Assembly: GCA_963804165.1 (NCBI GenBank)
Contig: CAWDPO010000006.1
Location: 64,001-128,000, forward strand
Direction of reading: 5' to 3'
Length of the DNA: 64,000 nucleotides
From: an uncultured delta proteobacterium
GTDB taxonomy: Bacteria > Desulfobacterota > Binatia > UBA9968
A program made the position numbers and the translations under genes. The notes below the pieces were generated by a model. It worked only from the letters and a program-made list of their open reading frames with translations. It ran no database searches and was not told the DNA's origin. The stretch's first letter is position 1. Every line of letters begins with the position of its first letter. Below, in pieces: positions 34,309-39,393 of this stretch.

Positions 34309-35301
34309 ATGAAAGTGTTTCAATCGCTGATAGCTCTGCTGGTTAATTTCTCATTCCTTGCGAATGCCCCGGCGCAAGAAAAGAAGCCCACCACCATCAA
34401 CCTCGGCTATTCTGCGATCAGCGGCAGTTTCGCGCCGCTCTGGGTTGGCTTCGACCAGGGCCTGTTCGCCAAGCACGGCATCGATCTCAAGATGGCCTAC
34501 ATCCAGGGCAACCGGGTAATGATGTCGGCATTGACCGCGGGCGAGATTCACATCTATCAAGGCGGCGCCGAAGGCTTGATCCGGCTCGTGTCGGGAGGCG
34601 GCGACGGCATTTTCATCGCCACGCAGTACAACTCCGTCAACCACTACGTTCTGATGACCGATCCGAGCATCACGCGCCTCGAAGATCTGCGCGGCAAGAG
34701 ACTCGCGCTCGATCCCACCAGCCCGACTTACGGCTACATGCTCAAAGTGCTCGAAACAGTGGGATTGAAAAAAGAAGATGTGAGCTTCGTGCAATTCGGC
34801 ACCGTCGGACAGCCGGAGCGTTCCATGGCGGTCATGCGCAAACAGGCCGCGGCAACCATTCTCACGGCGCCGAATACCTACGCCGCAGAGAAGCAGGGTT
34901 TAAGAAAATTTTCGATCATTCGCGAGCTCGGCATCCGCCAATTGATCACCGTCAGCGCGACCACCAAAAGATTTCTCCGTGAAAAACGTGAAGTTGCTGA
35001 CGCGTATCTGCGCGCCTACGTCGAAGCTCTCGCTTATGTAAAAGCCAATCGCGATATCACGATGAAAGTAATCGCCAAATACACCCGCCAGCGCGACCCG
35101 GAGGTGCTCGTTAAATTCTACGACGACCTGGTGCCTGACCTGCCGCGCATCCCCTACATCGACGAAGTCTCGGCGCGGGCCACCGTCGAGGCGATGCAGG
35201 CGCAGGGCCCGCCGCTACCGAAAGTGGATGTGAAAGCGCTATACGATAATAGTCTGTTGAAGACGATTGAAGCGGATCTAGAGCGCGATAGACGCCGCTA
35301 G
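34309..35301 (+). CDS. NitT/TauT-type ABC substrate-binding protein
   Basis: Signal peptide; GYSAISGSFAPLW, GLFAKHGID, DLRGKRL. Confidence 0.88.
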   Translation: MKVFQSLIALLVNFSFLANAPAQEKKPTTINLGYSAISGSFAPLWVGFDQGLFAKHGIDLKMAYIQGNRVMMSALTAGEIHIYQGGAEGLIRLVSGGGDGIFIATQYNSVNHYVLMTDPSITRLEDLRGKRLALDPTSPTYGYMLKVLETVGLKKEDVSFVQFGTVGQPERSMAVMRKQAAATILTAPNTYAAEKQGLRKFSIIRELGIRQLITVSATTKRFLREKREVADAYLRAYVEALAYVKANRDITMKVIAKYTRQRDPEVLVKFYDDLVPDLPRIPYIDEVSARATVEAMQAQGPPLPKVDVKALYDNSLLKTIEADLERDRRR

Positions 35302-35385
35302 CCCCACCGGAGTGACATATTGGCCACCTGTCATCTCGAACGAAGTGAGAGATCTTTCCGAACTGCCATGCAGATGCACGTAGAC

Positions 35386-35601
35386 TCATGAAGATTCCGC
35401 CTCCGCCCGCCGTTGCTCGATCGAGTAGCGCACCAATGCGGCATACCGGTAAACCACGTGGGCAAACTTTCCATAAGGCAATGTAATGAACAATCCCGCG
35501 ACCACGCCTAAATGGATCACCAGCAGCGTTCCCATCGCTGCTGTTTCCCGCAGCGCTAACAGTAACAATCCTGTGAAGCTCGTCATAAACAACAGTACGA
35601 G
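35386..35601 (-). pseudogene. tcuB: tcuB 3'-end remnant
   Basis: 63/71 aa identical to the TcuB C-terminus (36894-37109); homology stops at the RAYT repeat array. Confidence 0.88.
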
Positions 35602-35650
35602 GGTCAAGGGTCGGGGTCACAGGGTCGGGGTCACACAGGGTCGGGGTCAG
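35600..35650 (+). repeat. Irregular tandem array (AGGGTCGGGGTCAC)n at RAYT left end
   Basis: agggtca-agggtcggggtcac-agggtcggggtcac-ac-agggtcggggtcag. Confidence 0.85.
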
Positions 35651-36648
35651 GCCTGAGCCTGGATTTTACGCCTCAGCGCACCGGCCACAATCCGTTCTCG
35701 GCTATCGTCCCTTTTCTCTTCATAGTCTTTATACAAACGGCTGATCATCGACGGATCGCGTCCCAAACGCTTGCCCAACTCCTGCGTTGTCATTCCCTCC
35801 CATTCGCGTGCCAAATATACCAAAAATTTCCGCCCCTCGATCCAATCCCTCTGCCGCCCACTGCCGGTCAGCGCCTCTTTCGTTATGTGCCATTGTCTCG
35901 CTACCGCGTCTAGTAGTCGCTCGAAACCGACTTTCGGCCCCTTCGCGTCGAGGTCTCTTACCTTTGCCTGAGACGCAACCTTCTCCACAAATGTCTCATC
36001 GCCCAAAAACCGCTGGTCCGTTGCCTGATAATATTTCTCTTCGTGACCTCTGGCCAGGCCATCTTCCATAAACTTCACATAGCCGCGTCTCGCTTGTGCC
36101 ACCCCTTTGGCCATCTGCCCCAGCACCGCTTCCGTTTCGACTTTGACTTCACTCTCTTCTCCAAGATAGGACCGATGGCTGCTCCAGCGAAATTTCCATG
36201 GGTCTACCCAGTTTCTCATCCGACCCGGATTTAGGTGAATGTATCTTACCAGCTCAAGCAAATACGCGTCGCGATCGCAGAGAATCGCCTTGTAGCGCCC
36301 TTGAAATAAGTGGCCCACCGTGTGATGGCGACGGTTGTACGTCTGGGTATAGGTGAACTGTATCGCCTGCATGATTTTGGAAAGAAGTACCCTCCTCGTC
36401 TCCAGCAGCAAATGCACATGATTGGACATCAAAACGTATCCGTAGACTACGAAACCGCAGCGCTGGCGATAGTGTTCGAGACGCTCAAGGTACGCCGTCC
36501 GGTCCTCGTCATCACGAAAAACTATCCGGCGCTGATTGCCCCGCACGATGACATGATAGAAAGCCCCTTCAAACTCGACTCGTGACTTTCGTGCCATGGT
36601 TCATTCCTATCAGATCCCCCCTCTTAAGTACAGACTCAGGCCTGACCC
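35644..36648 (-). mobile_element. RAYT element bounded by 18-bp inverted repeats
   Basis: GGGTCAGGCCTGAGCCTG (35644-35661) vs CAGACTCAGGCCTGACCC (36631-36648), 17/18 match, each with core palindrome TCAGGCCTGA. Confidence 0.75.
35647..36597 (-). CDS. REP-associated tyrosine transposase (Y1/HUH) with C-terminal DnaA-like HTH
   Basis: YHVIVRGNQR, YVLMSNHVHLL (HUH), GHLFQGRY, RYIHLNP, WSS; C-terminal ELGKRLGRDPSMIS. Confidence 0.92.
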   Translation of the reverse strand: MARKSRVEFEGAFYHVIVRGNQRRIVFRDDEDRTAYLERLEHYRQRCGFVVYGYVLMSNHVHLLLETRRVLLSKIMQAIQFTYTQTYNRRHHTVGHLFQGRYKAILCDRDAYLLELVRYIHLNPGRMRNWVDPWKFRWSSHRSYLGEESEVKVETEAVLGQMAKGVAQARRGYVKFMEDGLARGHEEKYYQATDQRFLGDETFVEKVASQAKVRDLDAKGPKVGFERLLDAVARQWHITKEALTGSGRQRDWIEGRKFLVYLAREWEGMTTQELGKRLGRDPSMISRLYKDYEEKRDDSRERIVAGALRRKIQAQA

Positions 36649-36733
36649 TAAACTCTTCTAAATCTAAACTCTCCTTAAACTCTCCTCCTAAACTCTCCTA
36701 AACTCTTCTACCTAAAACTCTCTAAACTCTTCT
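36648..36733 (+). repeat. Irregular tandem array (CTAAACTCT)n at RAYT right end
   Basis: About 7-8 imperfect copies of ctaaactct with variable linkers. Confidence 0.85.
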
Positions 36734-36893
36734 GCACTCGCAGCCTATCTCCCCCACGGTTTGGTTGGCTGACGCCCAACCATTACAAACGATATCGCTG
36801 CCGCCTCGGTTCAAGAATTGTGATGCTGCTACGATCCCGAACGATGTGAGAGACCGTGCTTGAGTCGGCGTATCGATTGAACAACACGCGACT

Positions 36894-38006
36894 CTACGAA
36901 GAATGTGCCTCGGCCCTTCGCTGCTCGATGGAATAGCGCACCAAAGCTGCGTAGCGGTACACGACGTGGGCGAACTTACCGTAGGGCGCGGTGATGAAGA
37001 GACCGGCGACGAATCCTAAATGGATGACAAGGAGTATTCCCATAGCGGAAGTTTCACGGAACGCTAACAACAAAAGTCCGGTGAAGCTCGTCGAAAACAA
37101 CAATATAAGAAACGCCACGTCCATGGTGAGCATGGTGGAATCGGCGGGTGCGCGGTCGCTTTGCCATTTCAGATAAAGCAATCCGGCCGGGCCGATCAAC
37201 AAGCCGATGCCGCCGACCGTGCCGAGAACCACCGGTGCGCTGAAATAGGGATACGGCGCTTGCCAACCGAGAAAGTGATCGTAGAACGCGGCGATGCTCG
37301 TGGCCGCCAAGTCGAGTAGAAATCCATAAAATGTCAGATGGTGATACCACATGCGCGATCGCGAGAAGCTCTCGCCGGGATAATTGCAGCCGGCGCCGCC
37401 GCCTTTCATATAAGCGAGGCCGAACGCATCTTTGGTCGCGCGCCACAGCGCGGACGGATCGACGAGGGCGGCAACCGGTCCTTGGGTCTCGCGCCAGAAG
37501 CGCAGCGTGCCGGCAACGAAGATCGCGAAGCCATAGAGCGCGATGAGCGACGGCGCTACGGTCATCGCGACAAACGGCACGACGCGGTAAAACGTCCCTT
37601 CTCCGAGATGCGTGGCGAATAAAACATCAGGGCCTTGGAATATCAGCACAAGCCCAAGAATGATGACGATCGACGCCAAGGTGATTACGCTCACCGCCAG
37701 CGCGTTGCGGTTGAATAAAGCCGACAAAATCGCCGGCCAGGTAAACTCCCGATAAGTATCGGAGCGGAGCTCGGACATGAGTTTCGGAATATTGACGCCG
37801 AATTCGTGCGGCGGAGCGTATTGGCAAGCGTAATAGCAGTCGCGGCAATCGAAGCAAAGATTGGCAAGATAAGTCAGATCCGCTTTGGTAAAGACGCGGC
37901 GCTGCTCCATCGCCGGAAAAACCGCGCAGTAGCCTTCGCAGTACCGGCAAGCGTTGCAGATCGTCATCTGCCGCGCCCCGTCTTTAACAAGGTCAAAATC
38001 CGGCAC
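36894..38006 (-). CDS. tcuB: Tricarballylate utilization 4Fe-4S membrane protein TcuB
   Basis: ICNACRYCEGYCAVFPAME, LANLCFDCRDCYYACQYAPPHEF, PYGKFAH. Confidence 0.95.
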   Translation of the reverse strand: MPDFDLVKDGARQMTICNACRYCEGYCAVFPAMEQRRVFTKADLTYLANLCFDCRDCYYACQYAPPHEFGVNIPKLMSELRSDTYREFTWPAILSALFNRNALAVSVITLASIVIILGLVLIFQGPDVLFATHLGEGTFYRVVPFVAMTVAPSLIALYGFAIFVAGTLRFWRETQGPVAALVDPSALWRATKDAFGLAYMKGGGAGCNYPGESFSRSRMWYHHLTFYGFLLDLAATSIAAFYDHFLGWQAPYPYFSAPVVLGTVGGIGLLIGPAGLLYLKWQSDRAPADSTMLTMDVAFLILLFSTSFTGLLLLAFRETSAMGILLVIHLGFVAGLFITAPYGKFAHVVYRYAALVRYSIEQRRAEAHSS

Positions 38007-39393
38007 AGCGCGCCGCCTCCCGCCCGGCAATTCTCCCGAATACGGAACCGATGGTTAAGCCGAATCCCGCGAGATAACCTTTGCCGAGAATATTGCCCGC
38101 CATCACTTCACCCGCCGCGAAAACATTTTTCGCCGGCCGATCGTCTTGCATGATCACCTGCGCCTGCTCGTTCACGGTAACTCCTAGATAAGTAAACGTG
38201 ATCCCTGGCCGCAGCGGATAGCCGTAATACGGCGGCGTATCGATCAGCCTGGCCCAGTGGCTCTTCGGCGGATGAAGCCCCGTCGTAACACAATCGTCCA
38301 AACTGCCTGGATCGAACTTTCCACCGTGCACCGAGCGGTTGAATTCATCGACGACGGCCGAAAGCGCGCGCGGATCGATCTGCAACGCCGTGGCAAGCTC
38401 GGCGATGGAAGCTGCCTCAACCGGCGGAAACACCGACGGCATGAAGTGCGGCAACCCTTTGGCATCGACGACGGAATAAGCGATCTGGTCCGGCTGCTCG
38501 GCGATGAGCCGGCCCCAAATCGCATAGCGCTTCGGCCAAAAATCCTCGCCCTCGTCGTAGAAACGCTTCACGTCTTTATTGACGACGATACCGAACGGCA
38601 CGCTGTCCAGCCGGGTCACGATACCGCCGTCGAATTTCGGCGCGCGCGCGTCCAGCGCGACGGCGTGGCAGCCGCGCGGGTCGCCCTCCGGCTTGGCGCC
38701 GTGCCTGAGCAACTCTTTCAGCATGCCGCCTTTGTTGTGCGGCGTGCCGCGGATGATGAAATTGTCCGCCGCGTCGCCCCAGTATTCTTTCAGCCAGGGA
38801 ATATTCGCTTCGAAGCCGCCCGAAGCAACAACGAGAACTTTTGCATCGATCGTACGCAAGTCTCCGTCGTTGACGCACACCGCCGAAACAAATTGGCCGT
38901 CGCGCATTTCCAGTTCGCGCACTTCGGTTTGATAATAAATCTCCACGCCGAGCTTCGCCGCCGTAGCATAGTACGCGTTCATCATCGCCTTGCCGCCGCC
39001 CAGCATGAATAGATTGCTGCGCGTGAGATGGAGTGTGCCGCGCAGCGGCTTTTGCCAGCGCACGCCGTTGGCCGGCATCCAGTCGCCCAGCTCCTCGGAG
39101 TTACGAATCGTCAAACGCGCGAGCGCTTCGTTGGTTGCCCCGCCCGTGACACCTAGAAGATCCTGCCAAAATTCTTCTTCGCCGTAGGCGCCGGTGACGA
39201 ACTCCGTCGCCGCCTTGTGCATATAACGAATATCGCGTGTGTGGCGGCTATTGCCGCCGCGAAAATCTTTTGTCGCGCATTCGAGCACGACCACACTCGC
39301 CCCGGCGCGGCGCGCCGTGATCGCCGCGCACAACGCGGCGTTGCCGCCGCCGATGACGAGAACGTCGAACGTCGCGCGAGCGTTACTCATCAT
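37993..39393 (-). CDS. tcuA: FAD-dependent tricarballylate dehydrogenase TcuA
   Basis: GGGNAALCAA, RGGNSRHTR, DARAPKFDGGIVTRLD, GNILGKGYLAGFG. Confidence 0.95.
   Translation of the reverse strand: MMSNARATFDVLVIGGGNAALCAAITARRAGASVVVLECATKDFRGGNSRHTRDIRYMHKAATEFVTGAYGEEEFWQDLLGVTGGATNEALARLTIRNSEELGDWMPANGVRWQKPLRGTLHLTRSNLFMLGGGKAMMNAYYATAAKLGVEIYYQTEVRELEMRDGQFVSAVCVNDGDLRTIDAKVLVVASGGFEANIPWLKEYWGDAADNFIIRGTPHNKGGMLKELLRHGAKPEGDPRGCHAVALDARAPKFDGGIVTRLDSVPFGIVVNKDVKRFYDEGEDFWPKRYAIWGRLIAEQPDQIAYSVVDAKGLPHFMPSVFPPVEAASIAELATALQIDPRALSAVVDEFNRSVHGGKFDPGSLDDCVTTGLHPPKSHWARLIDTPPYYGYPLRPGITFTYLGVTVNEQAQVIMQDDRPAKNVFAAGEVMAGNILGKGYLAGFGLTIGSVFGRIAGREAARCAGF

Follow-up and report, generated by a model that had tools for sequence, protein, structure and literature searches.

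The names TIRtron and TIRYT were introduced in 2013 by Di Nocera, De Gregorio, and Rocco for RAYT-like genes that are flanked by terminal inverted repeats (TIRs), many of which contain a GGGGWSAS motif (PMC3733652). In their 2018 classification, Quentin, Siguier, Chandler, and Fichant placed 20 of the 26 described TIRYTs in subclass 2.1 of the TnpA_REP proteins, and they equated subgroup 2.1.2, whose members have a Bac_DnaA_C domain or a short helix-turn-helix (HTH) tail (HTH_23/28-like) and no repetitive extragenic palindrome (REP) nearby, with TIRYT (PMC6006769). Here, we analyze an element of this kind from an uncultured delta proteobacterium, together with two arrays of short repeats that abut its ends. 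It lies in a 64,000-nt stretch of contig CAWDPO010000006.1, referred to below as the window. The initial annotation of the window had proposed a novel system; the class, as outlined above, was already named, and we regard it as almost certain that the element is a TIRtron and hence a new member of a described class. The end arrays themselves are apparently an undescribed, family-wide footprint that locates the true ends of these elements. No printed description of TIRtron end arrays was found in main texts and abstracts, with most subscription journals and supplements lying outside this search, and wording for tandem or direct repeats or duplications at the ends is absent from the main texts of both papers ("duplication" and "direct repeat" for PMC3733652 and "tandem" for PMC6006769).

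Results

Transposase and terminal inverted repeats of the window element

Judged by its sequence, the window gene is that of a TIRYT-class Y1/HUH transposase with intact catalytic residues. In Pfam searches, the protein matched Y1_Tnp (PF01797) over residues 13 to 121 (E value of 5.7e-15; 55.9 bits against a gathering cutoff of 23) and Bac_DnaA_C (PF08299) over residues 226 to 287 (E value of 1.6e-9; 38.1 bits against a cutoff of 31.5). When the protein was aligned with six paralogues of its own genome (7 sequences), the HUH residues H60 and H62 and the tyrosine Y119 proved invariant. By its C-terminal Bac_DnaA_C domain, the enzyme would belong to subclass 2.1.2. The HUH/Y1 assignment made initially is thus confirmed, and the accompanying label "RAYT" is imprecise: the Y1 kinship stands, but the RAYT identity does not. 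The NCBIfam RAYT model NF047646 gave 60.3 bits, below its cutoff of 80, and no high-copy REP/REPIN family matching the flanking repeat was found in the 7.5-Mb genome, where the repeat core is present in only 5 to 8 copies (TCAGGCCTGA eight times and GGGTCAGGCCTGA five times). The canonical RAYT was rejected on these two grounds, and the REP/REPIN reading of the repeats was rejected because of their low copy number. A tblastn search of the same genome with the window protein returned 17 matches with 34 to 60% identity, 9 of which span at least 250 residues.

The enclosing inverted repeats reported in the initial annotation are real, with 23-nt arms (35644 to 35666 and 36626 to 36648) that are 87% complementary and share the core TCAGGCCTGA. 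It also holds that the left repeat encodes the stop codon (35647 to 35649) and that 33 nt separate the 18-nt core of the right repeat from the ATG. The element tips read GGG(G)TCAGG and are of the GGGGWSAS type, with GGGGTCAG at 35643 to 35650 in the left arm and GGGTCAGG in the right arm. No target-site duplication was found at the window element, in agreement with the earlier claim; among the 57 family loci introduced below, 47 lack one and 10 have one of 2 to 3 nt, the same as is seen with mismatched left/right pairs. Searches returned no known RNA family within 35000 to 37300 at E values of up to 1 and no sigma-70-like promoter in the 5' TIR, the right array, or the sequence next to this array. 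Three solo repeats of the window type are present in the genome (G000) at C17:2735-2760, C17:80255-80300, and C43:381161-381185; they share a longer consensus (...GGGTCAGGCCTGAATCTGGATTCT), and one of them has a 20-nt tandem re-copy.

Composition of the end arrays

Both arrays were recovered by Tandem Repeats Finder, the left one at 35601 to 35649 (3.4 copies; score of 73) and the right one at 36647 to 36733 (score of 110; periods of 10 to 12 and 24). The unit AGGGTCGGGGTCA occurs three times in the left array and nowhere else in the genome, and CTAAACTCT has five exact occurrences in the right array, with variants besides. Left and right arrays have no word in common beyond chance. The initial counts of three units on the left and about 7 to 8 variants on the right were reproduced, as was the statement that the two arrays are unrelated to each other.

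The units had initially been read as ragged re-copies of the junction. Comparisons with orthologues in which the sequence is uninterrupted contradict this at three elements. At the left end of the window element, tcuB homology runs to ...ACGAG at 35601, where the orthologues continue with AAACGCC and the window with the array; the underlying alignment comprised the tcuB remnant, the intact tcuB of the window, and five orthologues from the genus. For an element on contig C17 of the same genome, three relatives have a GST-like gene without interruption, and this gene resumes right outside the outer copy of a 15-nt unit; the 9 "flank" bases of the unit are missing from the orthologues and resemble the opposite element end (7 of 10 positions). 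At C34:158457, the relatives G043 and G024 (flank identity of 95 to 96%) resume at CACTGG, directly outside two 12-nt units, and what lies upstream in the relatives is a different sequence. A reading of the units as host flank plus tip was thus rejected in 3 of 3 comparisons. Moreover, 7 to 11 nt outside GGGG are common to copies of the same element at different sites: the 5' ends have AAGCTAT, AAGCTAT, and AAACTAT, the 3' ends share GGAGAAATTAC-like words, and two copies in relative G015 that are 94 to 98% identical have GAAATAG and GGAATAG. Family-wide, the outer positions are A rich, often with a T beside the G-run. From the three orthologue comparisons and the shared outer bases, it follows that the true element ends appear to lie about 7 to 14 nt beyond the conserved GGGGWSA tip and hence outside the published TIR. 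By the same comparisons, the array units are tandem re-copies of the element's own first 6 to 25 nt, beginning at the host boundary. Each unit would consist of the terminal segment plus 0 to 7 nt of the tip, with the stacks seemingly built independently at each end.

Recurrence of the arrays across the family

A scan of one prokaryotic genome per species gave at least 598 stretches, of which at least 580 encode a relative of the window protein. The best 80, from Nitrospirota, Desulfobacterota, Acidobacteriota, Proteobacteria, and other groups, were kept and joined with eight loci from the window genome for an analysis of ends. Of these 88 loci, 57 had a motif-tipped TIR and were retained, six of them from the window genome, which provided 114 ends. 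For each testable end, an 11-nt word (8 outer plus 3 tip bases) was searched for up to 100 nt outside the end with at most 1 mismatch; pseudo-ends 200 to 800 nt farther out and inner positions within the element served as controls. The tip-spanning word was found again outside 33 of 111 ends, compared to 5 of the 1125 pseudo-ends and 5 of the 1254 inner positions. At least one end was positive at 24 of the 57 loci and both ends at 9. This bears out the proposal, made with the initial annotation, that homologues should have GGGTCA-type repeats with locus-specific stutters. A profile of perfect tandem duplications (period of 6 to 30 nt), which was blind to the position of the tip, gave a matching result, as such duplications cover 27 to 28% of ends at positions -15 to -1, 20% at positions 0 to 4, 9% at positions 5 to 9, and no more than 0.4% at distances of over 150 nt in either direction. 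In total, 92 exact re-copies were counted at 44 of the 114 ends. Arrays accompany proteins with long DnaA-like tails as well as proteins with only a short HTH, and three excluded loci that lack the motif (L020, L075, and L078) visibly have them too.

Within the window genome, end re-copies are visible at the paralogues C17:3246, C1:180086, C34:158457 (both ends), C24, and C17:167893 and at both C46 copies. The bare motif GGGTCARRY is not enriched there (348 sites versus about 555 expected from base composition), and a re-copy is present at 8 of the 22 sites that adjoin a TIRYT gene versus 7 of the 326 sites elsewhere; those of the 7 that were inspected are recognizable solo TIRs.

Two rival readings of the arrays were weighed. 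One is an assembly artifact at a repeat boundary, for which it could be said that the window assembly consists of 46 contigs and is 81% complete. The same pattern is present in dozens of independent assemblies from many phyla, among them isolate genomes and assemblies at chromosome level (L076, L082, L086, and L087), which makes an artifact unlikely in general; we give it next to no weight. In the other, the arrays are selected functional repeats, such as additional sites to which the HTH domain binds or a means of promoter tuning. In support, the right array is situated upstream of the gene, 9-bp repeats are described as the binding sites of DnaA-type HTH domains (PMC6006769), and 5' ends are positive somewhat more often than 3' ends (20 of 55 versus 13 of 56). 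This last difference is small, however, and the units differ between ends and between loci, are carried by less than half of the ends, and are equally present downstream of the gene; with no sigma-70-like promoter in or beside the right array, selection for such a function seems highly improbable. We hold with high confidence that the arrays are a real, family-wide by-product of the element ends.

Clues to the origin of the arrays

In 32 perfect duplications, the re-copied length ranges from 6 to 25 nt. Microhomology at the junction amounts to 0 nt in 11 of them, 1 nt in 9, 2 nt in 5, and 3 nt in 2, the other 5 being further copies. The inner edges of the 92 re-copies fall in or at the G-run in 56 cases and after GGGGTC or GGGGTCA in 24, and 12 reach 1 to 23 nt further. 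These data bear on replication slippage independent of the transposase, in which G-rich, protein-free ends would stall the fork and slipped-strand mispairing would produce the duplications. The tips do have G-runs, slippage classically yields tandem repeats, higher-order periods are seen in some arrays, and solo TIRs with no neighboring gene have arrays as well. On the other hand, 20 of the 32 perfect duplications have a microhomology of only 0 to 1 nt, the duplication hotspot is one sided and abuts the tip, the inner edges concentrate at two positions, and a re-copy is rare at GGGTCARRY sites away from TIRYT genes, where the inspected cases are themselves solo TIRs. The slight microhomology together with the nonrandom inner edges favors a break-and-join process over slippage, which we consider unlikely.

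A further possibility is that the arrays arise during transposition itself and not by later nicking in situ, for example through a faulty start or stop of a rolling-circle-like copy or through the cross-joining of two cleavage sites on sister strands. In its favor, copies of one element that are 94 to 98% identical already differ in their arrays between sites, and TnpA_REP is described as having several cleavage sites to either side of its REP and as performing strand transfer (PMC8266576). Such an origin would require several events per end, given that the arrays are multiunit, ragged, and nested, and arrays are also carried by solo TIRs. We rate it as quite unlikely, and the data do not cleanly separate it from the in situ nicking that we favor. 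No orthologous occupied sites with different array lengths were found within the genus.

Surroundings of the element and other observations

The element is situated downstream of tcuAB, and the features of the locus are listed in Table 1. The 216-nt tcuB remnant shares 87% identity with tcuB of relative G014, compared to only 76% with the intact neighbor 1.3 kb away, which indicates that it belongs to a different tcuB lineage and is not a local duplicate. The rest of this second gene was found nowhere in the assembly. In the syntenic relative G018 (locus L092; G018:C13, approximately 900 to 1300), a 690-bp spacer with an unrelated small open reading frame lies between an NMT1-like gene and tcuB and contains neither a TIRtron nor a tcuB remnant.

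Table 1. Positions of the TIRtron, its end arrays, and adjoining genes in the window
Feature	Position	Strand	Remarks
Interrupted target	35386..35601	-	3' remnant of a second tcuB, about the last 68 codons; TIGR02484
Left array	35602..35642	+	GGGTC(A) pieces, (AGGGTCGGGGTCA)x3, with fillers of 1 to 3 nt; starts exactly where tcuB homology ends
3'-side TIR (left)	35643..35666	.	Tip GGGGTCA on the + strand at 35643-35649; includes the stop codon
TIRYT gene	35647..36597	-	316 aa; Y1/HUH domain, residues 13-121; DnaA-domain-IV-like HTH, residues 226-287
5'-side TIR (right)	36626..36648	.	Tip GGGTCA on the - strand, 36648-36643
Right array	36649..36733	-	Re-copies of AGAGTTTA plus 0 to 2 tip G (- strand), 5 of them exact and about 3 degenerate; higher-order period of 24
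Intact tcuB (context)	36894..38030	-	TIGR02484, 415 bits; downstream of tcuA (37993-39393)

All three TIRtrons compared with orthologues adjoin a truncated gene or sequence (C17:4257-4699, C34:159423-160273, and the window at 35386-35601), and in none of the three was its other half located beyond the opposite end of the element; with n = 3, the missing halves may reflect deletion next to the element, a rearrangement, or DNA that was carried along.

Downstream of both tcuB copies lies a hairpin-forming repeat of about 35 nt with the core ATCTC..GAGAT (35323 to 35366 and 36834 to 36853). It has matches of 89 to 100% at dozens of sites in other genomes of the genus and is also present in unrelated contexts on metagenome contigs from soil and sediment, and its appearance is that of a REP-like or terminator-like repeat family in the genus.

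TIRtrons can be clustered, with three copies within 33 kb of the window genome (C34:130300-163688) and three full copies plus one N-terminal fragment within 6.5 kb at relative locus L103 (G015:C8:234000-244500). On C34, an irregular array of TTGAACG-like words extends over about 150 nt behind the stop codon of the paralogue at 130300 to 130929, and no inverted-repeat partner was found for it. A TTGAC(A) sequence is present about 11 to 13 nt inside many 5' arms (for example, in L016, L019, L022, and L024) and is often lost from the 3' arm. It may provide a -35 box for the transposase gene; the window copy gave no promoter-like match. A relative is also encoded in six plasmid records, and two of these, both from Rhodospirillum rubrum, are identical in feature layout around a short relative.

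Discussion

The initial annotation attributed the arrays to repeated nicking followed by templated synthesis. This remains the best explanation, with one change: the nick, which had been placed at the inverted repeat, is moved to the true end outside it. Overall, we lean toward the view that the element is a TIRtron whose arrays are generated by cycles of nicking, short extension, and resealing. HUH enzymes are described as binding the 5' phosphate as a 5'-phosphotyrosine, and the 3'-OH left by the cut can either serve as a primer for synthesis or resolve the link (PMC8266576). Since only element bases are duplicated and never host bases, the primer would be the 3'-OH on the host side, in the strand with the order 5'-host-terminal segment-GGGGTCA-3'. 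In the proposed cycle, the transposase would bind the GGGGTCA region, nick the G-rich strand at the boundary between host and element, and stay joined to the 5' end of the element. A host polymerase would then extend the host-side 3'-OH by a few bases and stall at the protein bound on GGGGTCA, whereupon the enzyme would join the displaced 5' end to the newly extended 3' end and so reseal the strand. One such cycle would add one copy of the first x bases without a need for microhomology, and repeated cycles would lead to an array. A dependence of the arrays on the transposase seems probable to us, and the precise succession of nick, extension, and resealing is put forward tentatively, its chances being somewhat short of even. 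Every part of this cycle is inferred, from the nick, with the strand and site assigned to it, to the action of the polymerase and the final resealing.

Several observations weigh against this account or limit its basis. Clean resealing predicts no filler bases, and such bases are present between the left-array units of the window (C and CAC) and elsewhere (CA on C17 and TT in L086). Arrays at solo TIRs with no adjoining gene require either action in trans or that the arrays are relics, and no exact re-copy is present at 70 of the 114 ends. As for end recognition, a GTCA..TGAC hairpin, of the type that IS200 and RAYT enzymes recognize, is present at 27 of 114 tips compared to 7.9% of control positions, a weak signal. 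The orthologue comparisons number three, all in the window genome, with relatives that are 74 to 96% identical. Before counting, 31 of the 88 loci were excluded: 14 had no inverted repeat scoring at least 28, 6 had too little flank, 6 had a repeat with no recognizable tip motif, 3 had a short open reading frame, and 2 had one that is cut off at the contig edge. Related loci do not provide fully independent ends; the contrast of about 30% versus 0.4% stands apart from p-values that assume independent ends. Finally, at most 13% of the sampled words were present in any public sequencing run; contigs from the four best runs were short and of low depth, and none covers 36611 to 36895, which leaves the right array uncovered. 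An exact 25-nt word from the element had 0 matches in metagenome contigs.

TIRYTs are widespread, with at least 580 relatives in one genome per species, and no biochemistry was found for the family. In light of this, the end arrays are of use as a handle on the mechanism that comes from sequence alone, as they suggest the position of the cut, its strand, and the seat of the enzyme. It is possible, and we hold it with slightly more reserve than the route itself, that TIRYTs carry out an HUH/Y1 reaction new to print, namely, a one-ended nick, a short extension, and a reseal, and that the arrays are a cumulative log of cleavage. If so, they would mark the cleavage site (the boundary 7 to 14 nt outside GGGGWSA), the G-rich strand as the one cleaved, and the footprint of the enzyme, and the same activity at the ends may also explain the truncated genes beside TIRtrons. 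For annotation, the findings imply that elements appear to extend past the published TIR and that short tandem repeats beside GGGGTCA-tipped repeats should be treated as transposon ends and not as independent features.

Compared with the TIRtrons as described in the main text of PMC3733652, the window element has the same Y1 RAYT-like gene between TIRs instead of REPs and the same GGGGWSAS motif, and its genome likewise has low-copy solo TIRs scattered about and several divergent TIRYT genes; re-copies at the ends and ends that reach beyond the TIR are not mentioned in that text. With TnpA_REP subgroup 2.1.2, it shares the Y1 core with a C-terminal Bac_DnaA_C domain or short HTH and the lack of a REP-like sequence nearby (PMC6006769); the account in PMC6006769 is one of protein phylogenomics and does not cover the anatomy of the ends.

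Three other HUH systems can be compared as well. REPtrons (Corneloup et al., 2021) have HUH/Y1 chemistry and a tetranucleotide at the outer foot, GTAG in their case and GGGG here, and cleavage sites a few bases off the tetranucleotide are a described REPtron feature (PMC8266576). They differ in that REPs are high-copy hairpins, whereas the TIR core of the window has 5 to 8 copies, its hairpin is not conserved, and the RAYT model scores below its cutoff. The IS200/IS605 family, with IS608, resembles the window element in its Y1 transposase, the lack of a target-site duplication, and cleavage that is offset from the recognized structure, with the true ends lying outside; it differs in its asymmetric ends, subterminal hairpins, lack of TIRs, and action on one strand (PMC8266576). 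The symmetry of the TIRs implies, for TIRtrons, action on opposite strands at the two ends, and membership in IS200/IS605 was rejected given that TIRs are present and that the GTCA..TGAC hairpin occurs at so small a share of tips. To our knowledge, no end arrays are known for IS200/IS605. Lastly, in rolling-circle Reps and relaxases, synthesis starts from the 3'-OH of the nick, and it is a 3'-OH, too, that resolves the 5'-tyrosyl link (PMC8266576), as would be the case here; those enzymes serve the replication or transfer of whole replicons, whereas at TIRtron ends, as proposed, only a few bases would be copied before resealing.

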